Below, piece by piece: positions 1-19,253 of a stretch of DNA of 19,253 bases (the stretch's first letter is position 1; each line of letters opens with the position of its first letter). The stretch spans positions 1 through 19,253 of the forward strand of contig JAFNAJ010000009.1 of NCBI GenBank assembly GCA_017860085.1. Direction: 5' to 3'. A program made the translations under genes and the position numbers. This DNA comes from Acidobacteriota bacterium (GTDB lineage Bacteria; Acidobacteriota; Vicinamibacteria; Vicinamibacterales; JAFNAJ01). Below the pieces are notes generated by a model. It saw only the letters and a program-made list of their open reading frames with translations, was not told where the DNA came from and did not search any database.

Positions 1-1
1 T

Positions 2-1084: not shown

Positions 1085-1119
1085 ACCCCAGGCCGTCGTG
1101 CGCCGTTGGAGGGCGAGCC

Positions 1120-2613: not shown

Positions 2614-2633
2614 CGACCGGAGCACACCGTTCC

Positions 2634-2662
2634 TTGACTGCGGCAAGGTCGTGGGATAGCGT
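2634..2662 (+). promoter_or_regulatory. Candidate sigma70-type promoter upstream of the BNR/Sortilin-like gene (TTGACT-17 nt-TAGCGT)
   Basis: TTGACT at 2634-2639, then 17 nt, then TAGCGT at 2657-2662, in the 138-nt intergenic region before the ATG at 2752. The -10 is weak and this is pattern only. Confidence 0.2.
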
Positions 2663-2751
2663 TCCGCCGCCCCCGCCCCTCGTGCCCTCATCGGACGACG
2701 AACGTTTGCCGGCCCGAGCAGCCGACCACCCTCGAACGAGGAGAAGAAACG

Positions 2752-6024: not shown

Positions 6025-6343
6025 CCGCAGCGACCACCTCGGCGACCGCGCGGCGGTAGCGGACCCCGCGCTCGGTCGGGAAGCGGCGCAGCCCCTCGGC
6101 TCGCAGCCGGGGGGCGTGATGTCGCTCGTAGGCGGCGAAGTCCTCGCGCGTGGCGAAGTGGTATCGCGCCTCGCCGCGGTAGACGGTGCGCCCACCGCTC
6201 GAGACGCTGTCGAGGGCGATAGCCTCGGCGTCTGTCGCCCCCGACGCGCAGACATCCGCGAGGTGGCCGTTCTTGAGCCAGTCGAGCCACTGCTTCAGCA
6301 ACTCCGCATCGTCGAACTCGGCGACGACGGTGTACGCGATCAT
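5984..6343 (-). CDS. DUF4286-family small protein (function unknown)
   Basis: MIAYTVVAEFDDAELLKQWLDWLKNGHLADV...FAAYERHHAPRLRAEGLRRFPTE matches the remembered DUF4286 pattern (MIIYN.T..V......EWL.WM...HIPEV...F..Y...FAPKL.AE). Its ATG (6343..6341) overlaps the TGA of the upstream hemerythrin gene (6342..6340) as ATGA. Its 3' end overlaps the convergent BNR gene by 41 nt. Confidence 0.5.
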   Translation of the reverse strand: MIAYTVVAEFDDAELLKQWLDWLKNGHLADVCASGATDAEAIALDSVSSGGRTVYRGEARYHFATREDFAAYERHHAPRLRAEGLRRFPTERGVRYRRAVAEVVAAVSASGVRRQSPAG

Positions 6344-6798
6344 TGCGACGGCCCCGCACCCTCCAAGTGGCTGAGAAACGCGCGGTCCTGCCCCTCGATG
6401 TGCTTCGTGAGCCAGGTTCGAACCGACTCGATGAAGGCGAGCGTCGGCCGGGAGTGCCCGGCGTCCACGCGATCCTGGAGCGCCTGTGCCTGTTCGAGCA
6501 GGTGATCGTGCTCGAGCGCGTGCGCCTCGTAGCCCGGATAGGCCGTCAGCCGCATCAGCATCTGCTCCGACATGAAGTGCACGGTGGTGTGTTCGATGAG
6601 TTGCGTCAGGATCTCGTTGATGCGGTTGGGGCCAAGGTCGCGTCGAACCGCGTCTTCGAGGGCACCGAGCAAGGCCATCTCGACCCGGTGTTCGGCCTCG
6701 ACTGTCGAGCGACCCTCCGCTTGGGCGAGCACCCAGCCGGACTGTTCCTCAGGGAACTGGGGCGATTCGGGCATAGGAGCGCCAGAGACTCCCAGCAT
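6340..6798 (-). CDS. Hemerythrin-like (bacteriohemerythrin HHE cation-binding) protein
   Basis: H/E ligand motifs are spaced as in hemerythrins: EAEHRVEMALL, HTTVHFMSEQ, HALEHDHLLEQ, and the signature WLTKHIEGQDRAF. The ORF is open to 6876. The start is chosen at the ATG at 6798 (M27). An alternative ATG lies at 6774 (M35). Neither has a clear SD. Confidence 0.7.
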   Translation of the reverse strand: MLGVSGAPMPESPQFPEEQSGWVLAQAEGRSTVEAEHRVEMALLGALEDAVRRDLGPNRINEILTQLIEHTTVHFMSEQMLMRLTAYPGYEAHALEHDHLLEQAQALQDRVDAGHSRPTLAFIESVRTWLTKHIEGQDRAFLSHLEGAGPSQ

Positions 6799-6946
6799 TC
6801 TACGAGATTCGCGCAGCAAGGTCGATGCCGGCAGCGCCACGGCGCTGCGACCTGACGCGCACACGCCCGGGCGCACACGCGCTTACAGATTCCGGCCTCC
6901 GCTGCCGAGAAGGGAGGCCCTGCGGGGCCAGGCACTGGCTCAAATG

Positions 6947-6971
6947 GCCGCCGTTGATTACAATAGGCGGC
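6947..6971 (+). promoter_or_regulatory. AT-rich promoter-like island (TTGATT / TACAAT) bracketed by a GCCGCC/GGCGGC inverted repeat, upstream of the kinase gene
   Basis: GCCGCC (6947-6952), then gttgattacaata, then GGCGGC (6966-6971). TACAAT at 6959-6964 lies 17 nt before ATG 6981. It is the only AT-rich 13-mer in a very GC-rich divergent intergenic region (6877-6980). Confidence 0.25.
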
Positions 6972-6980
6972 ACCTCGGCC

Positions 6981-7448
6981 ATGTCAGATTCGTGCGAGTT
7001 CAACCCTGATGATCTGGTCGTCACCTTCGACCGCGTGTTCCCTGCGGACGCGGAGGAGATTGACGGCGTGGTCGAGTCGGTGATGTCGACCGTGGGCCGG
7101 ATGGGATGTGCCGACGGACGTGAGCACGACATCGAGCTCGCCCTTCGCGAGGCCCTGGCCAACGCCATCAGGCACGGGTGCAAGAACGATCCCTCGAAGC
7201 AGGTGCAGTGCATGGTGGCGTGTGACCAGCAGCGGGGGATACTCGTCGTCGTGCGGGACAGCGGTGAGGGCTTCGACCCCGCCGCCGTGCCCAGCCCGCT
7301 CGTCGGCGAGAACGTCTTTCGCCATCATGGCCGCGGCATCTACCTGATCAACCAGTTGATGGACGAGGTCAGGTTCGAAAAAGGGGGGACCGAGATCCAC
7401 ATGCGCAAGCGTGGGCCCCTGGCGCCCCTGTCCGACGACCAATCCTGA
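6981..7448 (+). CDS. RsbW/SpoIIAB-like anti-sigma regulatory factor (HATPase_c_2 serine protein kinase)
   Basis: The protein is 155 aa. It carries the N-box ELALREALANAIRHG, the G1 box VVRDSGEGFD, and the G2 region HGRGIYLINQLMDEV. Size and motifs are typical of partner-switching kinases. The ATG at 6981 is chosen over the upstream in-frame extension of the ORF track. Confidence 0.7.
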   Translation: MSDSCEFNPDDLVVTFDRVFPADAEEIDGVVESVMSTVGRMGCADGREHDIELALREALANAIRHGCKNDPSKQVQCMVACDQQRGILVVVRDSGEGFDPAAVPSPLVGENVFRHHGRGIYLINQLMDEVRFEKGGTEIHMRKRGPLAPLSDDQS

Positions 7449-7530
7449 CTGACGCCGCCCCGCGCAGGCCGGCCACCTCGGCCGCGAACGCCGACCCGCT
7501 CATCCTCGTCTCAGGTGTGAGGGTGCCGCC

Positions 7531-9642
7531 ATGAGTCTCCGGTCCAAGCTGATCACTGCCTTCCTGCTGATGGCCGTGGTGCCGCTGGCGCTGGTGACCG
7601 TGGCGTCGTACCGGACCTCGGTGCGGGCATTCCGCCACGCGGTCGAAGCAGAGGCCGCCAGCCTGGCCGGCGACATGGGCCAGCGCATGGAGGTCGTGAC
7701 CAGCGAGATCGGCCGGCGGGTCGAGCGGGTCTGGGATGCGCCTGGATCCGACGAGTGGAGCATTGCCCAGGCCAGCGAGCACGTGGCCGCCCGGATTCCT
7801 GAGGGCCTGGCCGAGGCCCTCGGAGAGACCGCGCTGCTGCTCGAACGGGTCGAGGTGGTGCCGGTCGCCCCTGCCGCAAACGGGACGACCCGCGAGCACC
7901 GGTCATTCATTCTGAAAGGACACGTACCGCCGCCCCCGCCGCCCCCTGCCCCCGAGCCTGAACATGCCGCCCCCGCCGTACCGCCGCCCCCGCCGCCCAA
8001 AGTGGCCGTGGTGGCAGCGCCCGCCGCGTCGCGTGGCGAGGCGGTCGTCGTGGATCTCACCGGGGTGATGGAGGAACTGAAGCGCGAGATCGCCGGGCCA
8101 GCCGGCGATCCGCAGCGTGCGGCCGCCGCCGCGTGGGTGGACGTCGTCGGGCGTCAGGTCGTCACCGGCCTCGAACTGGGGCGGCGCTCGGCTGCTGCGG
8201 GGCTGCGCCTGGGCGCCGAAGAGCTGGCGCGCCAGGCCGAGCGGCACCAGTGGACGGTCGAGCGGAAGCGGGCCCTCATGCAGCGGGGCGAGATCGACGT
8301 GCCCGTCGAGCGCGAAGGCCGCGTCGTGGGCAAGGTCAATGCCCGCGTAGACCTCGAGCGCATGCTGGGCACCGTGCTCGCCTTGTCGCGGCGCGAGGCG
8401 GGCGAGGTGCCGTTCGCGATCGACGCGCAGCGCCGCGTGCACACGGCACGCGACAGCGACCGGGCCACGCTCGAGAACATCGGCGTGATGAGCGACGCGA
8501 AGGCGGGCAGCCTGCCGGAGGTCCGCTCGGACGACGACTGGATCGTCGTGACGAGGGCCGATTCGAGCGGCGTCGTGTTCGGGCTGGCGCGACCGGTGGC
8601 CGATTCGCTCGGCGAGATCCGGCGCACCTCCGTGCGCAACCTCGGCTTCGGCCTGGCGCTGATCGGCCTGGCGCTCATCGGGATCATTCCCGTGTCGCGT
8701 GGCATGACGCGCAACCTGTCAGTGCTGACTGACGGAGCCAACCAGTTGGCCCGGGGCGACCTCAGCGTCCGCGTTCCGGTGAAGTCCTCCGACGAGTTCG
8801 GTCACCTCGCCAGGTCGTTCAACCAGATGGCCGCAGGCCTGGAGTCGCATCAGAAACTGGTGGTCGAGCAGGAACGGCTGCACCGTGAGCTCGAGCTCTG
8901 CCGCCGGATCCAGACTGAAATGCTGCCGCGGACCCGCCTGCGGCTCGGGCTGGCCGAGATCAAGGGCATCTCGATTCCCGCGCGCGAGGTGGGCGGCGAC
9001 TTCTTCAACTACTTCGTCTTGCCCGACGGCAGCCTGGCGCTCGTCGTGGGCGACGTGTCGGGCAAGGGCGTGAGTGCGGCGCTGCTCATGGCAAACATCC
9101 AGGCCACGCTGCGCGCCCGCATGCCGCTCGAAAACGACCTCGCGCGGCTGGTAGAGACGATCGACCACGAAGTGGACGAGAACACACCAGGTGGCGTGTT
9201 TGTCACCCTGTTCGTGGGGATTCTCGACACCGAGCGCCGCGTGTTGCGGTACATCAACGCGGGTCACAACCCGCAGTTCGTCCTGCGGGCCAGCGGAAGC
9301 ATCGAACGGTTGTCGTCGGCTGGCCTGCCCGTGGGCCTCTATCCGGGCCAGGGCTACGCGGAGAGCGAAGTCGCCCTGGGCGATGCCGATCTGCTCTTCT
9401 TCTACACGGACGGCATGGTCGAGACCGAGAACGAGCGCGGCGACATGTTCAGCATCGACCGTCTGGAGGCGCTGCTGGTCGCCGAGCACCAGGCTGGCGT
9501 CGACGACTTGCTCGACCGCCTCGAACGCGTGGTGCGGGAGTTCAGGGGAACGGCCGAGCCTTTCGACGATGCCACCATGATGGCGCTGCGCCTCGACCGT
9601 GGACCAGCCCTCTCGTCGCCTCAGGTCCCCCTGGAACCGTAG
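7531..9642 (+). CDS. Membrane-anchored sensor PP2C serine phosphatase (TM - large extracytoplasmic region with poly-Pro tract - TM - HAMP - SpoIIE/RsbU-type PP2C)
   Basis: GAGGG at 7519-7523 lies 7 nt before the ATG. TM1 is LITAFLLMAVVPLALVTVASY and TM2 is LGFGLALIGLALIGIIPV. The HAMP region is LSVLTDGANQLARGDLSVRVPVKSSDEFGHLARSFNQMAAGL. PP2C motifs are present: VGGDFFNYF, LVVGDVSGKGVSAALLMA, FVTLFVGILD, YINAGHNP, LLFFYTDGMVE. A proline-rich stretch PPPPPPPAPEPEHAAPAVPPPPPPK lies in the extracytoplasmic region. Confidence 0.8.
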   Translation: MSLRSKLITAFLLMAVVPLALVTVASYRTSVRAFRHAVEAEAASLAGDMGQRMEVVTSEIGRRVERVWDAPGSDEWSIAQASEHVAARIPEGLAEALGETALLLERVEVVPVAPAANGTTREHRSFILKGHVPPPPPPPAPEPEHAAPAVPPPPPPKVAVVAAPAASRGEAVVVDLTGVMEELKREIAGPAGDPQRAAAAAWVDVVGRQVVTGLELGRRSAAAGLRLGAEELARQAERHQWTVERKRALMQRGEIDVPVEREGRVVGKVNARVDLERMLGTVLALSRREAGEVPFAIDAQRRVHTARDSDRATLENIGVMSDAKAGSLPEVRSDDDWIVVTRADSSGVVFGLARPVADSLGEIRRTSVRNLGFGLALIGLALIGIIPVSRGMTRNLSVLTDGANQLARGDLSVRVPVKSSDEFGHLARSFNQMAAGLESHQKLVVEQERLHRELELCRRIQTEMLPRTRLRLGLAEIKGISIPAREVGGDFFNYFVLPDGSLALVVGDVSGKGVSAALLMANIQATLRARMPLENDLARLVETIDHEVDENTPGGVFVTLFVGILDTERRVLRYINAGHNPQFVLRASGSIERLSSAGLPVGLYPGQGYAESEVALGDADLLFFYTDGMVETENERGDMFSIDRLEALLVAEHQAGVDDLLDRLERVVREFRGTAEPFDDATMMALRLDRGPALSSPQVPLEP
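7921..8005 (+). repeat. Low-complexity CCG/CCC (proline-codon) repeat tract inside the PP2C sensor gene
   Basis: ccgccgcccccgccgccccctgcccccgagcctgaacatgccgcccccgccgtaccgccgcccccgccgccc encodes the poly-Pro linker. It is coding low complexity, not a CRISPR or intergenic repeat. Confidence 0.6.
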
Positions 9643-9649
9643 AAGCGGT

Positions 9650-9736
9650 TTCACAACCCGGACGGGTCCTGTCCGCGAGGCTGTGAAGCCGGTTCCAGAA
9701 CGATCCGGCTGCACGGGTTAGGGTTAAGCTGTCCCG
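9650..9736 (+). ncRNA. Weak candidate degenerate TPP (THI-box) riboswitch in the 5' leader of the NCS1 permease gene
   Basis: GCGAGGCUGUGAAGCC resembles the thiM GUGAAGGCUGAGA element, with UGUGA in place of the conserved UGAGA. GAACGAUCCGG...CGGGUUAGGG resembles the CCUGAUCUGG...GCGUAGGGA pyrophosphate-sensor arm. The match is partial and unverified. Confidence 0.2.
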
Positions 9737-10972
9737 ATGCGTGCCGTCGAGTTTGGTCCGGTCCCGCTGTCCGAGCGCACGCAGTCGGCCTTCGACCTCT
9801 TCCTGATTTTCGCCGGCGCGAACATCGTCGCCACGACGCTCCAGGTTGGTGCAGCGCTGGCGCCCGACTATCCCCCGCGGCTGGCCATGGCCCTCATCGT
9901 TGCGGGGACCGTGCTGGGATCGGCCCTCGTGGCGGTGTTGGCGCCCATTGGACCGAGGCTTGGCGTGCCCTCGGTCGTCGCGGCCCGGGCGGTGCTCGGC
10001 CTGCGAGGGGCGGCCGCGGTCGCGCTGCTCCTCTACCTGACCAACTTCGCCTGGATCGCCATCAACAACCAGATCGCGGCCTCGGTCAGTGCCCAGGCGG
10101 TCGGCCACCCCGGTGCCGCCAGGCTGTTGAACGGGTTGCTCGGCGTGATGGCCACTGCCATCGTCGCGGGAGGTCCTCGGGCCGTGGGCCGTGCCGACCG
10201 CGTCGCCGTGCCCGTGATGCTGCTTGTGGGTGTGCTGTTGACGGCTGCGCTGATCACGAGGGTTCCCACGCCCGGCGGGAGCGTTGGGCCAGCTTCGGCC
10301 CCGCTGCTCCGCGGGCTCGACGTCGTGATCGGGTACCAGGTGTCGTGGATCCTCATGTTCGCCGACTACTCGCGGTACACCCGGTCGGCCAGGCGCGGGG
10401 CCGTGGCGGTGTTTCTCGGGCTGGCCGTGATGAGCGCCTGGTTCATTCCCATCGGTTTCTACGCGGCGCGCGCGGCGGGATCGAGTGATCCGGGCGCGAT
10501 GCTGGCCGCGACGGGCATTGGTTGGTGGGGAGCCCTGCTCGTGACGTTGGCGACAGTCACCACCAACTTCGTCAACATCTACCTGTCGTCGCTTGCGCTG
10601 AAGAGCCTGTGGCCCAGGGTGGGCGACCAGTTTGCCGTGTGGTCCATCGGCCTGGCCGGCACGGCGCTCGGCTTGTCCTCAAATGCGTGGCTGGGTCGCT
10701 ATGCCGACCTGATGCTGGTGTTGGGTGCCTTGCTCGTGCCGGTGGGTGGCATTCTGCTCGCGCACTACTTCCTGCTGGATCGCTCAACGAGGGTGGACGA
10801 TCTCTACGACTCTTCAGGCCCGTACGCCCGCCGGGGCGGATTCTCGACCGCGGGCGTCACGGCCTGGGTCGTGGGCAGCGCCACGTACTTCGTGGCCAGC
10901 CCGATAGGGTCCACGCTGCCGGCTCTGCTGGCTGCCGTGGTGACCTATGCCGCGCTCGCACGTCGTGCCTGA
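9737..10972 (+). CDS. NCS1-family permease (cytosine/purine/hydroxymethylpyrimidine CodB/CytX-like), 12-TM
   Basis: The 411-aa protein is very hydrophobic. The N-terminal SERTQSAFDLFLIFAGANIVATTLQVGAAL parallels CodB FTVWFGANMVITTLMTGALL. The length fits CodB/CytX. Confidence 0.65.
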   Translation: MRAVEFGPVPLSERTQSAFDLFLIFAGANIVATTLQVGAALAPDYPPRLAMALIVAGTVLGSALVAVLAPIGPRLGVPSVVAARAVLGLRGAAAVALLLYLTNFAWIAINNQIAASVSAQAVGHPGAARLLNGLLGVMATAIVAGGPRAVGRADRVAVPVMLLVGVLLTAALITRVPTPGGSVGPASAPLLRGLDVVIGYQVSWILMFADYSRYTRSARRGAVAVFLGLAVMSAWFIPIGFYAARAAGSSDPGAMLAATGIGWWGALLVTLATVTTNFVNIYLSSLALKSLWPRVGDQFAVWSIGLAGTALGLSSNAWLGRYADLMLVLGALLVPVGGILLAHYFLLDRSTRVDDLYDSSGPYARRGGFSTAGVTAWVVGSATYFVASPIGSTLPALLAAVVTYAALARRA

Positions 10973-11003
10973 GCCCGACTCGTCGACGCACGCTGGGGCC
11001 ACG

Positions 11004-11987
11004 ATGGGCGTGGCGTTCACGGCCGATCGCGGCGACGCCGGTGTGCGGGTCGACTTGGCGGTGTTGAGGCATCTCCCCCCGTCGAGGGTGCGATCGCGGA
11101 CCCGGGTTCAGCGCCTGGTCGCCGGCGGCGCGATCGAGGTCAACGGGCGAGTCGTGCGGCGCGCGTCGACGCGCCTCGCGCCGGGTGATCACGTCCTGGT
11201 TGCCTGGCCGGACGCGCACGCCCGGCAGGCGCCGGTGCCGCAGGCCATCAGGTTGGCGGTGCTCTTCGAGGATGAGTGGCTGATTGCCGTGAACAAGCCG
11301 CCCGGGCTCATCGTGCACCCGTCGTACAAGCACCCGGATCACACGCTGATCAACGCGCTCGTATGGCACGCGCGGATGGCCGACCCTGCGAGCGAGGCGC
11401 CCCGGTTGCTGCATCGCCTCGACAAGTGGACGTCGGGAGTGGTCGTGGCGGCGAGGAGTGGCTCGAGCTATGGCCCCCTGCTGACCGCGATGCGCGCGGC
11501 CGACGCTGAGAAGGCCTACCTGGCCGTGACCTACCGCGGACCTCGCCGACGTACCGGTGCGATCCGGTTCGCACTGGGGCGCGATGCTCACGACCGACGC
11601 CGGGTCGTGGCGTCGACAGGTGACGGGCGTGAGAGCCTCACGCGGTATGAGTGCGTGGCGCGAACCGCTGGAGCCAGACGAGGGCTGTCGTTGCTGCAGT
11701 GTCGCCTCGTCACCGGGCGGATGCACCAGATTCGAGTGCACCTGTCGGCCAGTGGCTGGCCGATCGTCGGCGATCCGTTCTACGGCAGCCGCGGCTGGGA
11801 GCGCATTCGCGATCCCCACCTGGCGGAGGTGACGCGACAATTCCCACGGCAAGCCCTGCACGCCTGGCGAGTGCGCTTCACGCACCCGTTCACGGGCGAA
11901 CGACTCTCGATCGTGGCCGGTGTACCCGACGACCTGGGGGCCTTGCTCGACGCGGGCGGGTTCGACCCGCGGCTCACCGACGCCTGA
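11004..11987 (+). CDS. RluA-family 23S rRNA pseudouridine synthase with an N-terminal S4 domain (RluD-like)
   Basis: The S4-like N-terminus is RVDLAVLRHL...SRTRVQRLVAGGAIEVNGRVV. The catalytic motif is HRLDKWTSGVVVAAR. Conserved HQIRVHLSASGWPIVGDPFYG is present. The 327-aa size matches RluD. An alternative in-frame ATG at 10947 would overlap the permease gene by 26 nt. Confidence 0.8.
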   Translation: MGVAFTADRGDAGVRVDLAVLRHLPPSRVRSRTRVQRLVAGGAIEVNGRVVRRASTRLAPGDHVLVAWPDAHARQAPVPQAIRLAVLFEDEWLIAVNKPPGLIVHPSYKHPDHTLINALVWHARMADPASEAPRLLHRLDKWTSGVVVAARSGSSYGPLLTAMRAADAEKAYLAVTYRGPRRRTGAIRFALGRDAHDRRRVVASTGDGRESLTRYECVARTAGARRGLSLLQCRLVTGRMHQIRVHLSASGWPIVGDPFYGSRGWERIRDPHLAEVTRQFPRQALHAWRVRFTHPFTGERLSIVAGVPDDLGALLDAGGFDPRLTDA

Positions 11988-12008
11988 TTCGTCGGTCATC
12001 GGCCGCGC

Positions 12009-12518
12009 TCAGTGCATGTCGATTGGCGGCGCGGACGCGGTACCCGCGCTGGGCATCCAGCGGGGGGTCGAGGCGCGGTAGGCTGCGTACTCGTCCCCGA
12101 ACTGACGTCGAAGACGAGGCTCCTCGTAGAGCACGACGAAGGCGTGGAAGGCGGCGAAGCACGCCACCGTGTAGATCGCCAGTGAGGGGGCCGCGAAGTA
12201 CAGCGCCTCGCCAGCCAGGAGCAGGGTGACGCCGATGTACATCGGGTTTCTCATCGACCGATAGGGGCCGGTCACGACAAGGTGTCGCGGAGGGTCCACG
12301 GGCGCAGGGGTACCACCGCCCACGAAAGCGAACGTGGCGAGCGCCGACGCGTAGAGTGAGGCTCCGGCGAGCACGGCAACCAGCCCTCCGGCGCTCAGGA
12401 GCCACGGCACCGCACCGTCACTCGTGGGCCAGCGCTCGAGGATCCTCCGAGGGACCAGTACGGCCACGGCGCCGGGCACGATGATGGTGAACACCAGGTT
12501 CTTGACGAGTAGCCTCAC
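12009..12518 (-). CDS. Isoprenylcysteine carboxyl methyltransferase (ICMT)/phospholipid methyltransferase-family membrane protein
   Basis: The ICMT/PEMT signature LVVTGPYRSMRNPMYIGV is present. The protein is hydrophobic and 169 aa. It starts at GTG 12518 and is convergent with rluD. Confidence 0.7.
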   Translation of the reverse strand: MRLLVKNLVFTIIVPGAVAVLVPRRILERWPTSDGAVPWLLSAGGLVAVLAGASLYASALATFAFVGGGTPAPVDPPRHLVVTGPYRSMRNPMYIGVTLLLAGEALYFAAPSLAIYTVACFAAFHAFVVLYEEPRLRRQFGDEYAAYRASTPRWMPSAGTASAPPIDMH

Positions 12519-12596
12519 GGCAGCGCCCGGTCAGGACGCGATCGTATACGAGAGGCCGGCCGGTTGCTCAGGCTCGCAGGCTGTCAGTCGCATATC

Positions 12597-13679
12597 ATGA
12601 AACGCGCCATGACACGTCGAGCCCCTGCGTTCCAGGTCCTGTGCGTTGCGGGTGTCATCGCCCTCAGCGCCACCGGGGCTGGCCGCGCGACGCCACCCGC
12701 CGCCCTGACAGTCCACCAGGACGTTCCAGGGGATAGGGGAACCTTCGAGCAGTGGATTGCGGATGTTCGTTCCGTGGCCCTCGCGCGCGGCATCAGGGCC
12801 GAGACGATCGACGCGGCGCTCACGGGTCTGGAGCCCCTGCCAGTGGTCGTCGAGCGAGACCGGACCCAGGCAGAGGTCAGGTTCGACCTGGATCGGTACC
12901 TGAAGCGCCGCCTGACGCGCAAGATGCTGCGCACAGCCAGCGACCAGATGCGCCAGCACCGCGCGCTTCTTGAGCGGACCTTCGCGGCCTACGGGGTGGA
13001 GCCGCACATCCTCGTCGCGATCTGGGGACTGGAATCGAACTTCGGTCGGTTCGCCGGCGTGCGACCCACCGTGGCTGCCCTGGCGACGCTTGGGTGGGAG
13101 GGCCGACGCGAGACGTTCTTTCGCGAGGAGTTGATTGCCGCGCTGCGCATTCTCGATGCCGGCGACATCTCGCCCTCTGCCATGAAAGGGTCGTGGGCGG
13201 GCGCCATGGGCCAGCCACAGTTCATGCCATCGAGTTACTTGCAGTACGCGCAGGACTTCGACGGTGACGGCCGCCGCGACATCTGGGCGTCACTGCCGGA
13301 CGTGTTCGCGTCGATTTCAAAGTACCTGGTGGATCGTGGGTGGGTGAAAGGCGAGCGGTGGGGACGCGAGGTCAAGGTGTCGACTGCGGCCGCCAGGCGG
13401 ATCGTGCAGAGCGTGCCGTCGCGCGACTCGAGCTGTAACGCGGCACGGCAGGCTCGCGGCCCGCTCCCCATCCAGCGCTGGAGGGAGCTGGGTGTCGTGC
13501 TGCCTGGGGGCGGGGCCCTGCCGCGGAGCGACATGCAGGCATCGCTCTTCCAGGCCGGTCGCCGCAGCTTCCTGCTGTACCGAAACTACGACGCGATCCT
13601 CGCCTACAACTGCGCGAATACCTACGCGCTCAGCGTGGGGCTGTTGGCCGATCGGACGGCGGCCGCACGTCGACGGTGA
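12597..13679 (+). CDS. mltB: Lytic murein transglycosylase B family (Slt35/MltB, SLT_2)
   Basis: The N-terminus has a signal-like MKRAMTRRAPAFQVLCVAGVIALSATGAG. The catalytic-Glu box ILVAIWGLESNFGRF and conserved AMGQPQFMPSSY are present. The ATG at 12597 is chosen. Another ATG is at 12609 and neither has an SD. Confidence 0.8.
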   Translation: MKRAMTRRAPAFQVLCVAGVIALSATGAGRATPPAALTVHQDVPGDRGTFEQWIADVRSVALARGIRAETIDAALTGLEPLPVVVERDRTQAEVRFDLDRYLKRRLTRKMLRTASDQMRQHRALLERTFAAYGVEPHILVAIWGLESNFGRFAGVRPTVAALATLGWEGRRETFFREELIAALRILDAGDISPSAMKGSWAGAMGQPQFMPSSYLQYAQDFDGDGRRDIWASLPDVFASISKYLVDRGWVKGERWGREVKVSTAAARRIVQSVPSRDSSCNAARQARGPLPIQRWRELGVVLPGGGALPRSDMQASLFQAGRRSFLLYRNYDAILAYNCANTYALSVGLLADRTAAARRR

Positions 13680-14742
13680 CCTCGGCAACCCCGAACCCTC
13701 GCTCGCCCTCGCGCGCGTAGCGCACGTCGCGCATCAGTACGTGAACGCCGGTGGCGGTCTCCGCCACGTCGAACGACGGATAGCGCATCCACGTGCGAAA
13801 GCCCCGAACCTCTGGATTCGAGAGAGCCACGGCCACCGCCGGGTGGTCGTCGCCTCGCCGGAGGGGGGATCCGCCCGCGCTGATCTCGCCGTTCCGCAGA
13901 TCGACGACCAGGAACTCGTAGCGATCGGCCAAGCCGACAATCACGTCGCGGCGCCAGGGATCGAGCGGCAGGGGACCCGCCATGAGCGTGACCGGGACGA
14001 CGTCGCGGGCAGCCAGCCAGGCGCGAGCCCGCTCTCGCGCCACGACCGATCCGCTTCGCATGGCCGCGATGTACACCAACAGGGCGCTCAACCCGACGAG
14101 AGCGAGCGTCGGAGCATGGCGTTCGGTGTCCAGCCTCGTCCGAGCCACGACGATCGCTGACACGCACGCGACCCAAACGATCCTGGCCGTCCACGATCCG
14201 AACGGGCTCGAGATCACGAACGCCGTGGTCAGCAGGGCGAGCGCGCTCCACGCCCATGTCTGCGCGCGCCCGCCGCGGGCCGCCACGGCTGCCCCGACGC
14301 CTGCCAGCAGCCAGAACCACGGATCGACGATGAAGAGCGTGTCGCCGTAGAACCAGCGGCCGTCGAACGGCATCAGGAGGCGAACGCCGTAGGTGTTGAG
14401 CAAGTCGAGGGCCGGATGACTCCAGACCGCGAGGAACGCGAGCAGGAGCAAGGGGACGCCGCGAACGGCAGGCACGCCTCCAGCCCCGCGCCGCGATGGG
14501 CTCCGGCCGAGCAGGACCATGGCTCCCGCCAGCAGGAACGGCAGCACGAACAGGGCTGCCACGCCATGGGTCCAGCCTCGGCGAACCAGGAGCGCCGTGT
14601 CCGAACCAGCCAGGTAGGCGACCGCGTCGAGGTCGGGCAGGTTGGCCCCGATGACGAGCGTGGCGGCCCCGAAGCGGCTCAGGCGCTTGAGCCCCGTGGC
14701 CGCGAGGGACGCGCCGACCAGCGTGTGGGCGACAGGATCCAT
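13630..14742 (-). CDS. YdjM/DUF457-family membrane-bound metal-dependent hydrolase (371 aa) with a C-terminal extramembrane domain
   Basis: The N-terminus MDPVAHTLVGASLAATGL...GANLPDLDAV is typical of the YdjM metal-dependent hydrolase family. Multiple TM helices follow, then about 150 aa of soluble domain. The ORF-track ORF (13630..15468) is truncated to the internal ATG at 14742. The upstream extension is low-complexity translation that overlaps the next gene in another frame. The ATG lies 10 nt after the upstream gene's stop. Confidence 0.6.
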   Translation of the reverse strand: MDPVAHTLVGASLAATGLKRLSRFGAATLVIGANLPDLDAVAYLAGSDTALLVRRGWTHGVAALFVLPFLLAGAMVLLGRSPSRRGAGGVPAVRGVPLLLLAFLAVWSHPALDLLNTYGVRLLMPFDGRWFYGDTLFIVDPWFWLLAGVGAAVAARGGRAQTWAWSALALLTTAFVISSPFGSWTARIVWVACVSAIVVARTRLDTERHAPTLALVGLSALLVYIAAMRSGSVVARERARAWLAARDVVPVTLMAGPLPLDPWRRDVIVGLADRYEFLVVDLRNGEISAGGSPLRRGDDHPAVAVALSNPEVRGFRTWMRYPSFDVAETATGVHVLMRDVRYAREGERGFGVAEVTVDVRPPSDRPTAPR

Positions 14743-14752
14743 CGGCGCGGGG

Positions 14753-15844
14753 TCAGTCGGCGTTGAGGAGGACCACCATGACGATGAGGAGGATCGCGAT
14801 GACGACGAGGGCGATCTTCCAGACGCTCTTCGGGTAGTCTCCGGCGATCTTGCCAGTGCACCCGTTGACGGCCACCTGGTAGGCCTTTGCTCCGTAGGTG
14901 TAGGAGAGAAACCAGACAGGCACCAGCACGTGCTTGAACGTGGGCCTCGAGAACTCAGGGTGGATGCTGAGGTTACGGTACGTGTCGCCAGGCACCTGCG
15001 CGCCGCACATCTCGGTGAGTTTCTGGCGCATCGCTTCCCGCGACATGTTCGCTGCCTCGACGAGCACCACCTGGTAGTGCTCGACGACGTGCCCCGAGAG
15101 GTAGCCGGTATCGTAGGGCACGAGCTCTGGTGTCGGGAACGGTTCGATCTGCCTGACGAGGTCCGTGCGCATGCCTCGCGTCCCAGGCACGGGCTCGTCG
15201 TCGAAGAAATGGTCGACGACTCCCGACGCCCATTCCCACCGGACCTTGCGCACCTGTCGGACCTGGGGGCGGCCACGACCGTCACGGACCTCCTCGCGCA
15301 CGTAGTAGTAGTGGCCCGCCTCGGCCTCCCAGGGGCAGTGCACTTGCGCGTCGAAGGTCCAGTAGGGAACGTACAGGCTGCGTACCGTGTCGACCAGAGC
15401 ACGGCGCTTGAGATTGCCCGGCGCGAACCACTTGCTGCCGAACCAGCGCCGGATGTCGTCGCGGACACGGCCGGCGCCGATCTTGAAAGGCAACAGGCTC
15501 TGCGGCGTGATCGGGGCCTTGATCTCCTCGTAGGGCACGAGCGCCGGCGAACCGCAGAACTCGCAGTTCTGGCCCACGCGTTCGGCGGGGAACACCATCA
15601 CCGCCTTGCAGCTCTGACACTGCACGCTGCGGCTCTCGAGGTGCCACCCGCGCAGCTCCTCGGGCAGGTCGCGGAGGGCCGTGACGAGATCAATCTCCTG
15701 GATCTTCCCGGTGTCCTTGTCGAACACGTAAGGCGACTCGGTGCCGCAGAACGGGCACACGAGGCGCTGACTGGCCGGGTTCCACTCGGCCTGGGCGCCG
15801 CACGCGGGACACGCGTGCTTCTCACGGGCGACGACGTCGGTCAT
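14753..15844 (-). CDS. Double zinc-ribbon protein with a central domain and a C-terminal transmembrane anchor (YdjG-like partner of the SPFH protein)
   Basis: Two CxxC-x(n)-CxxC ribbons are present: HACPACGAQAEWNPASQRLVCPFCG and VQCQSCKAVMVFPAERVGQNCEFCG. The C-terminus has a TM helix, VWKIALVVIAILLIVMVVLL. It lies immediately downstream of the SPFH gene on the same strand. Confidence 0.55.
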   Translation of the reverse strand: MTDVVAREKHACPACGAQAEWNPASQRLVCPFCGTESPYVFDKDTGKIQEIDLVTALRDLPEELRGWHLESRSVQCQSCKAVMVFPAERVGQNCEFCGSPALVPYEEIKAPITPQSLLPFKIGAGRVRDDIRRWFGSKWFAPGNLKRRALVDTVRSLYVPYWTFDAQVHCPWEAEAGHYYYVREEVRDGRGRPQVRQVRKVRWEWASGVVDHFFDDEPVPGTRGMRTDLVRQIEPFPTPELVPYDTGYLSGHVVEHYQVVLVEAANMSREAMRQKLTEMCGAQVPGDTYRNLSIHPEFSRPTFKHVLVPVWFLSYTYGAKAYQVAVNGCTGKIAGDYPKSVWKIALVVIAILLIVMVVLLNAD

Positions 15845-15914
15845 CGTTCAAAGAGGCGTGTGTCCAGCGGGCTGGTGGCGCGGCTGAACCTCGAGGCCTC
15901 GGCAAGGCTCCCGG

Positions 15915-16982
15915 TCAGCTGGCCAGGTAGGCATCGAGCGCACCGCGCGTCACGCGCCACGTCGATCCGATCTTCTTGCCTTTGAGATCGCCCGACTCGA
16001 GCACCGCGGTGACATCGGCCTCCGAGACACCCAGTGCCTGAGCGACATCGGCGACCGACAGCAGCGCTGCTGCCTCCGCGGGCGGGGGGCTGGCAGTCTT
16101 GCCAGGGCCGGCCGCGGCCGGCGCGCCCGCCATCATGCCGCTCTGCTGCATCATCTGCTGCGCAATGGCGAAGCCGACGGCGAGTTCCGTCGCCGTGCCG
16201 GCCGACCCGGTGCCGCCGGTCTCCATGCCCTTGGCCATCTGGTACTTGACGAAGTCGTTGAGGTTGCCAATCGTCGCCATGCTCGAGCGCTTGTCGATGG
16301 CCTGCTCGACCTCGGGCGGCACCGACACGTTCTCGACGATGAAGCTGGCGATATAGAGGCCGTACTTCGCCCCGACGACGGGGTTGACGAGGGGCAGCAG
16401 CGCATCGCCGAGCTCGCCGTAGCGGGTGGCCACGTCGAACACGGGGATCTTCGCCGATGCGAGCGCGTCGCTGAACACGCTGACCAGGCGCGACCGCATG
16501 GTGTCGGCGAACTCGTCGAGCCGGAAGTTCTGGTCCGAGCCGGCGACTTCCTTCAGGAAGAGCTTCGCATCGACCACCTTGACATCGTAGGTGCCGAACG
16601 CGCGCGCGCGGACAACACCGAGGTCGTCATCGCGCAGCATGATCGGATTGGCCGTGCCCCACTTGTTCCCCGTGAACAGCCGGGTGTTGATGTAGTAGAG
16701 GTCGGCCTTGAACGGCGAGTTGAACCCGTACTTCCATGACTTCAGGCGCGTCAGGACGGGGATGTTGTCGGTGGTGAGCGTGTGTTTGCCCGGTCCGAAG
16801 GTGTCGCCGAACTCGCCGAGGTACAGGAACTGCGCGACCTGGGACTCGCGCACGATCAGCTGGCAGCCGTTCTTGATCGCCTTGTCCTCGTCGGGGAACC
16901 GCCAGGAGAGCGTGTCGCGCGAGTCATCGGTCCACTCGATGATCTCGATCAGTTCGCCCTTGATGAAGTCGAGAATGCCCAT
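15915..16982 (-). CDS. SPFH/Band-7 family protein of the YdjI/COG4260 type with a C-terminal excisionase/MerR-like HTH_17 DNA-binding domain in place of the usual Zn-ribbon
   Basis: The N-terminal region is colinear with B. subtilis YdjI (MGILDFIKGELIEIIEWTDDS, WKYGFNSPFKADLYYINTRLF, Gly/Met-rich linker GMETGGTGSAGT...QQMMQQSGMMAG). The C-terminus LLSVADVAQALGVSEADVTAVLESGDLKGKKIGSTWRVTRGALDAYL matches the HTH_17/excisionase-family consensus (L.t..eaA..LgVs...v.....G.L...kiG..wRi....L..yl). GAGGAG lies 11 nt upstream of the ATG. Confidence 0.7.
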   Translation of the reverse strand: MGILDFIKGELIEIIEWTDDSRDTLSWRFPDEDKAIKNGCQLIVRESQVAQFLYLGEFGDTFGPGKHTLTTDNIPVLTRLKSWKYGFNSPFKADLYYINTRLFTGNKWGTANPIMLRDDDLGVVRARAFGTYDVKVVDAKLFLKEVAGSDQNFRLDEFADTMRSRLVSVFSDALASAKIPVFDVATRYGELGDALLPLVNPVVGAKYGLYIASFIVENVSVPPEVEQAIDKRSSMATIGNLNDFVKYQMAKGMETGGTGSAGTATELAVGFAIAQQMMQQSGMMAGAPAAAGPGKTASPPPAEAAALLSVADVAQALGVSEADVTAVLESGDLKGKKIGSTWRVTRGALDAYLAS

Positions 16983-17003
16983 GGTGTAAACAACTCCTCT
17001 GCT

Positions 17004-17025
17004 GACCCCTTTCCAGGAAGGGGTC
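17004..17025 (-). other. Perfect 8-bp stem / 6-nt loop hairpin (GACCCCTT-nnnnnn-AAGGGGTC) between the dodecin and SPFH genes
   Basis: gacccctt tccagg aaggggtc at 17004-17025. On the minus strand it lies 21 nt before the SPFH ATG and carries no U-tract. It may be an attenuator or RNA-processing/stability element rather than a canonical terminator. Confidence 0.35.
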
Positions 17026-17057
17026 GGCGCTCTGCAAGCCTTCCGCTTTGGCCAGCG

Positions 17058-17261
17058 CTAGTCGTTGAGGACGAAGGTGACCTTGAGGTCGACCCGGTAC
17101 TCCTTGATCTTGCCCTTCTCGACCTCGACCTTCATGCCCGACACCCACGCCCCGCGGACGTTCTTGAGGGTCTTGTTGGCCCGAACGATGCCCGACTTGA
17201 CGGCGTCGTCGAAGCTCTTGTCCGACGAGGAGATGATCTCGGTGACGCGTGCAACGGCCAT
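17058..17261 (-). CDS. Dodecin-family small flavin-binding protein
   Basis: The 67-aa protein MAVARVTEIISSSDKSFDDAVKSGIVRANKTLKNVRGAWVSGMKVEVEKGKIKEYRVDLKVTFVLND matches the dodecin pattern (V.k..El.gsS..s.edA...A...A.kTlrnv.......v.v..Gki..y.v.l.v.F..e). A strong RBS AGGAGG lies 4 nt before the ATG. Confidence 0.7.
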   Translation of the reverse strand: MAVARVTEIISSSDKSFDDAVKSGIVRANKTLKNVRGAWVSGMKVEVEKGKIKEYRVDLKVTFVLND

Positions 17262-17286
17262 GTGTCCTCCTGCGTGTGCTGATGAC

Positions 17287-17526
17287 TCAGTGGTCCAGAG
17301 GCGCCGCGTTGCCGCTGGGCGTGGAAGGCCGGCGGGTCTTCCACCGGCCGACCAGCGCAGTCAACAGCAGCAGGCCGAGCTCGTCGGCCAGCGGCACCAC
17401 GTCGGGCACGACGAAGTCCACCAGGGTGAGTGCCGCGAGGAGCACGAACAGCGTCGGGTACCTCAGGTCGAGACGCTCAATAAGACGGCCGACGAACGGG
17501 ATCGTGACGCGCGACGAGCTCGCCAT
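17287..17526 (-). CDS. Hypothetical small membrane protein (2 predicted TM helices), first gene of the dodecin/SPFH block
   Basis: The 79-aa protein has hydrophobic segments LFVLLAALTLVDFVV and LGLLLLTALVG. Its stop is 25 nt before the dodecin RBS. There is no clear SD of its own and no recognisable family. Confidence 0.35.
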   Translation of the reverse strand: MASSSRVTIPFVGRLIERLDLRYPTLFVLLAALTLVDFVVPDVVPLADELGLLLLTALVGRWKTRRPSTPSGNAAPLDH

Positions 17527-17559
17527 GGGGTCGGGGGCACCCGCTAGTCTAGTGCAGAA

Positions 17560-17586
17560 GGCGCACCCGCGTCACGCCGGTGCGCC
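17560..17586 (-). terminator. Hairpin (8-bp GC stem GGCGCACC/GGTGCGCC, 11-nt loop) immediately after the REC-ATPase stop codon, followed by a weak T-rich run
   Basis: On the minus strand the sequence reads TGA-GGCGCACC-GGCGTGACGCG-GGTGCGCC-TTCTGCACT. It could insulate the upstream gene from the downstream five-gene block. The U-tract is poor. Confidence 0.3.
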
Positions 17587-18420
17587 TCAGGCCGTGTGCT
17601 TGATCATGATGACCTCGTTGCCGCGCTCGTTGTAGACGAGTTCGTCGACGATTTGCTTCACGAGGAGCATCCCGAACCCACCTGGACGTCGGCCCTCCTC
17701 CGCCCGCCTGATGGCCGATGCCAGGACGTCGTCTGCCAGGCTCGTCTTGGCGGCGTGGGCCAGATCCTCCCGATCGAAGCCCGACCCGGGGTCGCGGAAG
17801 TGGTACACGATGGCCCGCGCGGTGTGAGCGGCCGTGACCTCGACGACCTTCTCCGGGTTGAACGCGGCGCCGTGCTCCATGGCGTTGATGAGCATCTCGC
17901 GAAACGCGGTCATCAGCAGATCGCGGTCGCCGCCAGGCACGTCCGACTGGTACTCGGTCATGAAGCGGACGAGGCGCTCGGCGGTGAGGAGGCGGCAACT
18001 GACGCGCAGCGTCACCCAGTGCGGGAGGCCAGACACCACCTCGATCCCGTCCGTCCAGTGATCGTCGGCGATCGCGGCGGCCACCATCTCAGCCACCTCG
18101 GCGAGATCGATCGGCGAGGAGAAACACGCGAACACGCTCGTCTTGAGCGCCTCGATGACGTCTTCGGGCGAGGTGGCGGGTGCCAGCACGATCAGGCGGA
18201 CACCTGGGCGGATCGCTCTGATCTCTCGCGCCAGCGCGAGGTCCTCGGCGACCGGCGTGGCCGGGTCGGTCAGCACGACGTCTACCGCGCGCTGCCGAAG
18301 CAGACGCACGGCCTCGACGCCCCCGGCGCAGGTGAGGATCTCGAGGCCGGGCAGCTTGTGATGCTTGTGCAGCGTGTCGAGCAGTTGGTCCGTCGGATGG
18401 ATGCAGAGGGCTCTGTGCAT
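17587..18420 (-). CDS. Fusion of a response-regulator receiver (REC-like) domain to a RsbW-type HATPase_c_2 ATPase/kinase domain
   Basis: The N-terminal receiver-like fold MHRALCIHPTDQ...AVDVVLTDPATP...VRLIVLAPA has the phospho-acceptor Asp in DVVLTD, but the usual N-terminal acidic pair is replaced by HPTDQ. The C-terminal part has the N-box FREMLINAMEHGA, G1 YHFRDPGSGFD, and G2 GGFGMLLVKQIVDEL. The start is chosen at ATG 18420 with GAGG 7 nt upstream. The ORF track extends to 18555 through low-complexity sequence. Confidence 0.65.
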   Translation of the reverse strand: MHRALCIHPTDQLLDTLHKHHKLPGLEILTCAGGVEAVRLLRQRAVDVVLTDPATPVAEDLALAREIRAIRPGVRLIVLAPATSPEDVIEALKTSVFACFSSPIDLAEVAEMVAAAIADDHWTDGIEVVSGLPHWVTLRVSCRLLTAERLVRFMTEYQSDVPGGDRDLLMTAFREMLINAMEHGAAFNPEKVVEVTAAHTARAIVYHFRDPGSGFDREDLAHAAKTSLADDVLASAIRRAEEGRRPGGFGMLLVKQIVDELVYNERGNEVIMIKHTA

Positions 18421-18451
18421 GGGTGAACCTCTGGTGCGGAGTCTACGGGGC

Positions 18452-18814
18452 TCAGGCGCCGCGGTTCCTGCCGCGTCCAGGGTCGATGACTTCAGGGTCG
18501 AGGAGTGCGATGACCTCCCGGGTCCGGCCTGGCCACCAGGCCGAGCCGAAGTCATGCGCCAGGATGCGGCGGACGATCGCGACAGGCTGGTGGGCGATGA
18601 GGCGGCTGAATCGCGCGCACTCGTCGGCGAGAGCGTGCCGCTCGTCGCGCGAGGCGTCAGCGAGGAAGACCTGGCGCGCCGCCTCGGCCGACCCGTACTC
18701 GGCCACGCACTCCTCGTGGAGGTAGGCGTGAAGGAACTCGGCGAGGACGGGGAAGTCGAGCCGACTCACGACCGGCGCGGCGCGCCGACTCGACGCTGTC
18801 CGCTGCGCACTCAT
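18452..18814 (-). CDS. CdiI-like immunity-protein family member (contact-dependent growth inhibition immunity fold), orphan
   Basis: LAEFLHAYLHEECVAEYGSAEAARQVFLADASRDERHALADECARF...DFGSAWWPG follows the remembered CdiI_2-type pattern (L..FiGaYfHQDWdleg.daeav...f........l..El..ll). The RBS GGAGG lies 7 nt before the ATG at 18814. No toxin-like gene is visible upstream in the window. Confidence 0.4.
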   Translation of the reverse strand: MSAQRTASSRRAAPVVSRLDFPVLAEFLHAYLHEECVAEYGSAEAARQVFLADASRDERHALADECARFSRLIAHQPVAIVRRILAHDFGSAWWPGRTREVIALLDPEVIDPGRGRNRGA

Positions 18815-18954
18815 CGTCAGGCCTCCGGAGACGAGGTCAACACGAGAAGATCGCGTGGCGGCCGACATGACGCGGACCGGAAGGCCGATTGTATCTCACC
18901 TGGCAACCACGCACGCGAGGCGCTCGTGGATGGCGGGTGGGCACCGTACACAAC

Positions 18955-18981
18955 GCGCCCCGGGCGTCGGGCCCGGGGCGC
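18955..18981 (-). other. Strong GC hairpin (11-bp stem GCGCCCCGGGC/GCCCGGGGCGC, 5-nt loop) in the intergenic region downstream of the small Cys/His ORF
   Basis: gcgccccgggc gtcgg gcccggggcgc at 18955-18981. It is a possible terminator for the 19025..19231 gene on the minus strand. Flanking U content is poor. Confidence 0.3.
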
Positions 18982-19024
18982 CAGGGGTGTGGAAGCAGCG
19001 AGGAGGACGCCGAGTGGACGTGAC

Positions 19025-19231
19025 TCAGGCGGCGCGACGAGCCAGATTGAGCGTCGCGGTCCGCGGCGCCTCAGCTCGGCGCTCTGCGTGACGGCCGATC
19101 TCGATGCCGGGCGTGGCCCGGCCGCACTTCATGCACTCGAGATACAGCCGATGCGGCTCGTGGCGCGACGTCCACTCGTGCGTGCAGAACAGGGCAACCG
19201 CGGCGTTCGCGATTCTCGTGAAGTTCGACAC
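19025..19231 (-). CDS. Hypothetical small Cys/His-containing (possible zinc-binding) protein, 68 aa
   Basis: A strong RBS AAGGAG lies 6 nt upstream of ATG 19231 (caaaggagtacgaagATG). The protein contains CTHEW...HEPHRLYLECMKCG. No family was recognised. Confidence 0.45.
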   Translation of the reverse strand: MSNFTRIANAAVALFCTHEWTSRHEPHRLYLECMKCGRATPGIEIGRHAERRAEAPRTATLNLARRAA

Positions 19232-19253
19232 CTTCGTACTCCTTTGTTCCTAC

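Follow-up and report, generated by a model that had tools for sequence, protein, structure and literature searches.

A 19,253-nucleotide (nt) stretch of DNA from an Acidobacteriota bacterium (assembly GCA_017860085.1, contig JAFNAJ010000009.1, positions 1 to 19,253; hereafter the window) carries five co-directional minus-strand genes that a first-pass annotation, made from the letters alone, had combined into one possible membrane-damage, envelope-stress or defence-type module. Our analysis points to a smaller unit. It probably consists of two genes, encoding an SPFH protein, soluble and with a helix-turn-helix (HTH) domain at its C terminus, and a membrane protein resembling SamG, which would form a PspA- and SamH-independent variant of the SamI/SamG couple for membrane surveillance or stress, the remaining genes of the block being neighbours. 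Judged by their sequences, both core proteins are orthologue-level relatives of SamI (YdjI) and SamG (YdjG) of Bacillus subtilis, where PspA-YdjGHI, renamed PspA-SamGHI, is a sigma-W membrane-stress operon (PMC8581546; bioRxiv 10.64898/2026.02.06.704340). The B. subtilis-type pspA-ydjGHI locus used for comparison was recovered through a 30-nt primer sequence published in PMC8581546, and Pfam assigned its products to PspA_IM30, Zn_Ribbon_TF, TPM_phosphatase and Band_7_1 with a zinc ribbon.

The 355-residue product of the first core gene matches Band_7_1 (6.9e-79) and HTH_17 (8.7e-9) in Pfam and aligns with B. subtilis YdjI/SamI over 276 residues with 26% identity (BLASTP, E 3e-30), which bears out its earlier description as a YdjI homologue. 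No hydrophobic or transmembrane (TM) segment was detected in it by hydropathy analysis. The Band_7_1 domain is its best-conserved region, with a mean identity of 79% to 67 orthologues, and leads into a low-complexity linker that measures 33-80 residues across orthologues, with 48% identity, and for which the AlphaFold2 (AF2) model gives a pLDDT (predicted local distance difference test) below 50. An equivalent M/Q/G-rich linker is present in YdjI (PMC8581546). The C-terminal head scores 36 bits against the HTH_17 cut-off of 27 and 28.2 bits (1.8e-6) against TIGR01764, just under the cut-off of 28.8, and AF2 models it as beta-alpha-alpha-beta-beta-alpha, a winged-helix-like secondary structure, with a pLDDT of about 80. 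Across 68 orthologues the head is 64% identical (consensus LGVsEaDV.a.le.G.LKgKKIGs.wRitRaAld.fL) and its net charge lies between -4 and 0, with a median of -1; its wing is basic (KKIGxxWR), but its putative recognition helix, S-E-A-D-V-M/T-A-I/V-L-E-S-G, is acidic. Canonical HTH_17 members carry basic or aromatic residues (R, K or Y) at several recognition-helix positions, which we use as a lead only. The first-pass annotation had supposed that the SPFH protein gained its HTH here. The domain does occupy the place held by zinc ribbons in YdjI, but this is no local gain, because Band_7_1 plus HTH_17 is the standard architecture of a very large clade: the SPFH-HTH query returned at least 8,000 candidates, both domains were found in 119 of the 120 best matches, and NCBI names such proteins 'SPFH and helix-turn-helix domain-containing protein'.

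The second core gene encodes a 363-residue protein that aligns end to end with YdjG/SamG (23% identity over 340 residues, E 8e-35) and shows no similarity to YdjH. The gene following the SPFH gene had been proposed as the YdjG counterpart, and this full-length match upholds the proposal; the idea of a YdjG-YdjH fusion was discarded on the same two results. Although its Pfam zinc-ribbon matches are all sub-threshold, the protein displays four CxxC pairs arranged as two ribbons. Six of the cysteines (C30, C33, C76, C79, C94 and C97) never vary in any of the three SamG-like alignments (A1 to A3); the other two, C12 and C15, do not vary in A2 and A3 either, and their conservation in A1, with its 52 sequences, is 90% or more. 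Hydropathy peaks at 3.25 over residues 337-363, where AF2 places a single helix, and with such a C-terminal anchor the zinc ribbons and the alpha/beta domain would face the cytoplasm. YdjG itself joins a YpeB-related domain and a TM segment to a pair of zinc ribbons (Ravi et al., PMC11237479). The window protein has the same layout, with two zinc ribbons, an alpha/beta (YpeB/PepSY-like) domain and a C-terminal TM helix, and is best classed from its sequence as a YdjG orthologue-type protein. The union of zinc-ribbon and TM functions in one protein had been presented as a departure from Bacillus; it is none, because B. subtilis YdjG already combines both. The YdjG-like family as a whole amounts to 6,864 representatives of 50%-identity clusters at E<=1e-3.

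The conservation of the pair was assessed by a genome scan with one genome per species, using a YdjG-like alignment of 14 sequences. The matches numbered at least 600, and the analysis retained the 80 best loci, in which the YdjG-like protein is 52-69% identical to that of the window, and three loci from the closest metagenomic relatives were added to give 83 related loci. They sample Vicinamibacterales and other Acidobacteriota, many Verrucomicrobiota, Casimicrobiaceae, Burkholderiales, Nitrosomonadales and a few other groups. Neighbours were counted by tblastn and jackhmmer with the window proteins in flanks of up to +/-10 kb. At three loci the sequence leaves no space upstream of the YdjG-like gene; of the 80 informative ones that remain, 74 have an SPFH-HTH gene as its immediate upstream neighbour, encoded in the same direction. 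It is full length, HTH included, in 66 loci, with 62-80% identity to the window protein, and the gap between the two genes has a median of 82 nt and is mostly below 150 nt. The order, strand and closeness of the pair are thus kept across at least four phyla, and the pairing is strong but not obligatory. Complete genomes carrying it include OZ252293.1, Opitutaceae EW11 and Comamonas odontotermitis WLL, where the two genes bear the locus tags LAD35_RS21005/RS21010.

No third family shares this conservation: all-versus-all clustering of the open reading frames (ORFs) within 6 kb at 80 loci yielded none. PspA is missing from the window, as had been stated, and from all 83 related loci; the same holds for TPM (YdjH/SamH), to which nothing in the window is similar. 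Dodecin and the REC-HATPase_c_2 gene that lies upstream of the block in the window were each found at 0 of the 83 loci, DUF6116 at two and YdjM at three. Of the loci, 74 extend for 1.2 kb or more downstream of the YdjG-like gene, and in 58 a complete SPFH gene is preceded by 700 nt or more of sequence, so that short contigs do not account for these absences. At some loci the core genes stand 0.5-1.4 kb apart around lineage-specific inserts: a secreted DUF4019 protein of about 144 residues (8.9e-32) in four betaproteobacterial loci (Casimicrobiaceae and others), a PDDEXK_3 protein in two Verrucomicrobia, an IS200-like gene, or a DNA methylase.

Several further observations were made around the pair. 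Several Verrucomicrobiota loci share a promoter-like pattern, approximately TTACAcAA ... AAATTnTACTTCC ... ATGATAC, located about 40-100 nt upstream of the SPFH start, and several Acidobacteriota loci have TAGAAT-like -10 boxes rather than this pattern; such promoter-like sequences upstream of the SPFH gene suggest that the pair is usually transcribed from a promoter of its own. At four Acidobacteriota loci, the gene just upstream of SPFH-HTH encodes a zinc-ribbon protein of about 250 residues with multiple CxxC motifs (clusters C21 and C27). The identity between Acidobacteriota, Verrucomicrobiota and Betaproteobacteria is unusually high for both core proteins, and could reflect strong constraint or horizontal transfer.

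More distant pairs carry a different SPFH head. Three assemblies, one of them a Kiritimatiellota genome, have a Band_7_1 gene with a GYF_2 head directly upstream of the YdjG-like gene; the Kiritimatiellota protein is 47% identical to the window SPFH protein over residues 1-248 and carries GYF_2 at residues 305-353, the position of HTH_17 (residues 307-354) in the window protein, and in YdjI a Zn_ribbon_3/DZR head occupies residues 300-322. RefSeq annotation gives an HTH_17 head for the Comamonas odontotermitis pair and a GYF_2 head for that of Vibrio coralliilyticus, with no other neighbours noted in either case, a GYF_2 head for Paracoccus ferrooxidans, where TelA precedes the pair, and a double zinc ribbon (DZR) head for Enterococcus gallinarum, where a TPM gene follows and PspA is lacking. 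On P. ferrooxidans pFER4 (1545-6263), the TelA (toxic anion resistance, 1.2e-106) and DUF2927 genes preceding the pair are co-directional with it and constitute another membrane-stress-type context. Since GYF_2 or zinc ribbons stand where HTH_17 sits, the SPFH head behaves as a swappable module, and the comparison favours a general unit in which an anchorless Band_7_1 SPFH body, extended by a linker and a head that can be exchanged, is paired with a YdjG-like anchor protein. PspA and TPM would then be additions seen in Firmicutes.

A mechanism can be proposed by analogy with the B. subtilis work (PMC8581546; bioRxiv 10.64898/2026.02.06.704340), in which YdjG and YdjH were needed for the membrane localisation of YdjI (PMC8581546). 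The tail-anchored SamG-like protein would expose its zinc ribbons and PepSY-like domain on the cytoplasmic side of the membrane and recruit the soluble SPFH protein there. The latter might then oligomerise into a sub-membrane scaffold, in which the flexible low-complexity linker would hold out the C-terminal head towards a client or an output partner, and the whole would serve in the surveillance of the membrane or in signalling stress. The HTH head may bind DNA. A role as an adaptor or partner-binding domain nevertheless seems at least as likely as one in transcription, because the recognition helix is acidic and modules of the protein-binding type replace the HTH in sister clades.

Several points weigh against a two-gene, PspA-independent unit. 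Six of the 80 informative HTH-clade loci have room upstream of the YdjG-like gene but no SPFH gene, and four of seven distant family members are solo YdjG-like genes. The two-hybrid partner of YdjI in B. subtilis was YdjH, not YdjG (PMC8581546), and since YdjH is missing here, the recruitment step may work differently. Recruitment, oligomerisation and stress sensing by the HTH-type pair are all transferred from a single Firmicute by analogy, and the AF2 model of the whole SPFH-HTH protein is poor (pLDDT 50, from a low-diversity alignment). The absence of PspA and TPM concerns the gene neighbourhood, that is the window and up to +/-10 kb at the 83 loci. YdjM, in addition, stands beside the pair in several Vicinamibacterales lineages and in two gene orders, which hints at more than chance, so that a strict two-gene definition may be too narrow for this lineage.

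That scope leaves room for a dispersed PspA-SamGHI system, in which the pair would work with PspA/IM30, and perhaps TPM, encoded elsewhere in the genome. In its favour, Enterococcus keeps SPFH, YdjG and TPM together without an adjacent PspA. Against it, neither PspA nor TPM was met near any of the related loci, the conserved partner of PspA is the missing YdjH/TPM (PMC11237479), and a potential contact with PspA would fall to an HTH_17 head where Bacillus has a zinc ribbon; we regard this reading as rather unlikely. The nature of the head bears equally on the possibility that the SPFH-HTH protein is a membrane-sequestered transcription factor, the SamG-like anchor holding the SPFH oligomer and its HTH at the membrane until a perturbation frees or exposes the domain for gene regulation or for tethering DNA to the membrane. 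HTH_17 is a DNA-binding family, the match exceeds the Pfam cut-off, the domain is well conserved with a basic wing, loss of SamI in B. subtilis leads to global transcriptional changes (bioRxiv 10.64898/2026.02.06.704340), and zinc ribbons, the Bacillus equivalent of the HTH, can also bind nucleic acid. This has to be set against the acidic recognition helix, where basic or aromatic residues would be expected, the net charge of -4 to 0 in all 68 orthologues, the occupation of the same position by GYF_2, a peptide-binding-type module, in sister clades, and the lack of any palindrome or operator common to the loci upstream of the SPFH gene, and on balance makes a sequestered transcription factor unlikely.

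The recurrence of YdjM raises the question of whether the Vicinamibacterales lineage has acquired this hydrolase as a client of the SPFH protein, making a local three-gene module of SPFH-HTH, SamG-like and YdjM genes. In favour of such a link, the SamG-like stop and the YdjM start are separated by 10 nt only, YdjM is adjacent also at 90% and 75% SamG-like identity, with the downstream position that it has in the window (L083 and L085), and membrane proteases or enzymes are typical clients of SPFH scaffolds (reviewed in bioRxiv 10.64898/2026.02.06.704340). In L008 the neighbour has changed sides and precedes the SPFH gene, and its retention through a rearrangement suggests linkage. The three loci all belong to one order, however, although 74 loci have enough downstream sequence, L084 (73% identity) is without YdjM, and SLT_2 travels with L007 and L008 too, which points to plain local synteny. 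The client reading, drawn from gene adjacency, thus appears quite improbable, and YdjM may represent either a lineage-specific functional link, for example an SPFH client, or plain synteny. As for the original proposal of a single dedicated operon, comprising all five genes and serving against membrane damage, in envelope stress or in defence, the genes are closely spaced and co-directional with no terminator-like site between them, the block is intact in relatives from several metagenomes, and YdjM (L083, L085, L008) and DUF6116 (L084, L014) recur near the pair. The full block nevertheless appears only on contigs whose SPFH protein is 96-99% identical, where the whole 17-kb gene order is the same as in the window and the block is therefore shared by ancestry and not by selection; these relatives are apparently strain- or species-level (same species or population), and in most genomes the flanks of the pair are unrelated. 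A conserved neighbourhood was thus found for the SPFH-HTH/zinc-ribbon pair and not for the five-gene combination, whose members essentially do not co-occur beyond near-identical relatives. The suggestion of a defence-type module fares no better: the sole match in PADLOC-DB 2.0 is that of the HTH domain (residues 307-350) to mad1 (7.6e-8), no relatives were found in 2.9 M viral contigs, a phage collection returned six distant matches (18-26% identity) in unannotated records, and the flanks are varied and mostly of housekeeping type. A defence role was rejected on these grounds, the five-gene reading is largely refuted as a general system, and a dedicated five-gene operon is very improbable.

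All five ORFs of the block were recovered at the positions first assigned to them (Table 1) and appear in independent gene calls on near-identical contigs, the YdjM-like ORF starting at an internal ATG of a longer one. The spacers are 25, 75, 70 and 10 nt from upstream to downstream, so that the announced range and the 10-nt gap between the zinc-ribbon gene and the hydrolase gene both proved accurate. The genes and their order are real, but the run of co-directional genes was drawn too short, as it continues upstream of the DUF6116 gene. Four of the five proteins obtained the expected kind of Pfam assignment, namely DUF6116, Dodecin, Band_7_1 with HTH_17, and YdjM; NCBIfam has no match for the zinc-ribbon/TM, YdjM and DUF6116 proteins. 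The identification of Dodecin (PF07311), a flavin-binding storage protein family, is secure in Pfam (86.5 bits for a cut-off of 22.5), and the corresponding NCBIfam equivalogs remain under their cut-off (52.8 versus 75). That of YdjM (PF04307) was likewise confirmed over residues 1-175 of 370 (92.4 bits for a cut-off of 29, 3e-26), in a polytopic protein with several hydrophobic segments.

Among the 83 loci, Dodecin is not associated with the pair outside the species of the window. DUF6116 occurs in two Vicinamibacterales-type loci: in L084 it immediately precedes the SPFH-HTH gene, and in L014 it lies 2 kb upstream of that gene. Like Dodecin and the REC-HATPase_c_2 gene further upstream, it is a lineage-specific neighbour. 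YdjM, too, stands outside the general module; it is a recurrent neighbour in a narrow Vicinamibacterales subgroup, where it may be a local client, and it is possibly translationally coupled to the SamG-like gene, a gap of 10 nt being too short for a separate promoter or LexA box.

Table 1. Positions of the core genes, their domains and the surrounding features in the window, in ascending order
Feature	Position	Strand	Remarks
Sortilin/Vps10 + BNR/Asp-box repeat protein	2752-6024	+	1090 aa
RsbW-like HATPase_c_2 protein gene	6825-7448	+	partner-switching type
HAMP+SpoIIE (PP2C) phosphatase gene	7531-9642	+	partner-switching type
SLT_2 lytic transglycosylase gene	12564-13679	+	convergent with YdjM-like gene
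YdjM-family polytopic membrane protein gene	13630-14742	-	370 aa; putative metal-dependent hydrolase
SamG/YdjG-like tail-anchored membrane protein gene	14753-15844	-	363 aa; core gene 2 of the pair
Single C-terminal TM helix (SamG-like)	14759-14824	-	aa 341-362 (AF2 helix)
Two putative zinc ribbons (SamG-like)	15554-15811	-	C12/C15/C30/C33 and C76/C79/C94/C97; four CxxC pairs
SPFH-HTH (SamI/YdjI-like, soluble) gene	15915-16982	-	355 aa; core gene 1 of the pair
C-terminal HTH_17 head (excisionase/MerR-type winged helix)	15921-16064	-	aa 307-354
Gly/Met/Gln/Ala/Pro-rich low-complexity linker	16065-16274	-	aa 237-306
Band_7_1 (SPFH) domain	16275-16904	-	aa 27-236
Perfect 8-bp hairpin	17004-17025	-	GACCCCTT-CCTGGA-AAGGGGTC; in the 75-nt spacer between dodecin and SPFH genes
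Dodecin gene	17058-17261	-	67 aa; Pfam 1.5e-24
DUF6116 small membrane protein gene	17287-17526	-	79 aa; Pfam 2.4e-13; 1 hydrophobic segment
REC+HATPase_c_2 gene	17587-18555	-	60 nt upstream of DUF6116 gene; likely true start 18420; partner-switching type
CdiI_2-like ORF	18452-18814	-	120 aa; Pfam 27.6 bits (cut-off 26.7), weak; beyond REC+HATPase_c_2 gene

A promoter and terminator scan returned no promoter in the window, and its sole terminator-like site, fewer than expected by chance, falls within the SamG-like ORF; Rfam and ARAGORN detected no regulatory RNA or tRNA in the window. The hairpin in the 75-nt spacer has no T-run, the spacer folds no better than its shuffles (z -0.94) and no comparable element is common to other loci, which makes its significance doubtful. 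No shared palindrome or operator was detected in the 160 nt upstream of the SPFH gene at more than 60 loci either, and the candidate autoregulatory operator was dropped on the strength of both results. Downstream, the 3' ends of the YdjM-like and convergent SLT_2 genes overlap by 50 nt (13630-13679), an arrangement also called on the near-identical contigs L090-L096. Three partner-switching-type signalling genes, including that for REC+HATPase_c_2, are present in the window, and none of them recurs beside the SPFH pair at other loci. No CdiA-like toxin gene was seen in the window beside the CdiI_2-like ORF.

In the end, what the first-pass annotation had observed is confirmed and its interpretation is partly supported: the locus is no new kind of system and the five-gene combination has no general significance. 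The interest lies in the pair. Of the SPFH/YdjG-like module only B. subtilis SamGHI has been studied, and there it is taken to be accessory to the ESCRT-III-like PspA stress system. That a SamI/SamG core occurs in Acidobacteriota, Verrucomicrobiota, Proteobacteria and Kiritimatiellota with neither PspA nor SamH in its neighbourhood changes the view of what is core in the Bacillus system and what was added to it. The module is strongly conserved (SPFH 62-80% across phyla) and its head is swapped between clades, giving a concrete handle on what the SPFH scaffold talks to, and culturable carriers are at hand in Comamonas odontotermitis WLL, Paracoccus, Vibrio coralliilyticus, Opitutaceae EW11 and Verrucomicrobium sp. 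BvORR106. The Band_7_1 plus HTH_17 architecture is catalogued in databases and, to our knowledge, has received no analysis in the literature; its breadth and head swapping should be of moderate interest to the SPFH and Psp fields. A wider reading, to which we assign a low probability, would see in the pair an ancient PspA-independent membrane-surveillance module of many phyla with an output set by the head, in which the HTH clade (Acidobacteriota, Verrucomicrobiota and Betaproteobacteria) would couple membrane state to DNA or transcription through a head sequestered in, or released from, the sub-membrane SPFH assembly, YdjM being scaffolded in the present lineage.

Among known systems, the YdjM-like protein resembles E. 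coli YdjM (PF04307), a LexA-regulated inner-membrane protein. The N-terminal 175 residues match and both are polytopic, whereas the window protein is twice as long, with about 195 additional C-terminal residues, and its gene follows the preceding one too closely to hold a promoter or LexA box. HflK/C-FtsH and stomatin/QmcA-NfeD (YbbJ) likewise place an SPFH gene beside that of the membrane partner on which it presumably acts, and YdjM could be a client in the window lineage in the manner of HflK/C-FtsH-type scaffolds; those PF01145-type SPFH proteins, however, have a membrane anchor of their own and a coiled-coil cap, in contrast to the anchorless Band_7_1 protein, and the window pair has no protease or NfeD gene. 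In PspA-SamGHI the SPFH protein is also a soluble Band_7_1 protein with an M/Q/G low-complexity linker and a small C-terminal head, and the membrane protein encoded beside it likewise begins with two zinc ribbons, continues with an alpha/beta domain and ends in a TM helix; the homology extends over the full length of both proteins. The window pair differs from this system in having neither PspA nor TPM (SamH/YdjH) nearby, in the order SPFH to SamG-like instead of G-H-I, in a head that is HTH_17 and not a double zinc ribbon, and in an identity of only 23-26%. The GYF_2 pairs of Paracoccus, Vibrio coralliilyticus and Kiritimatiellota differ in their turn by their head and by a YdjG-like partner only about 30-35% identical to that of the window, yet have the same two-gene order, an SPFH body 47% identical and a head in the equivalent position.

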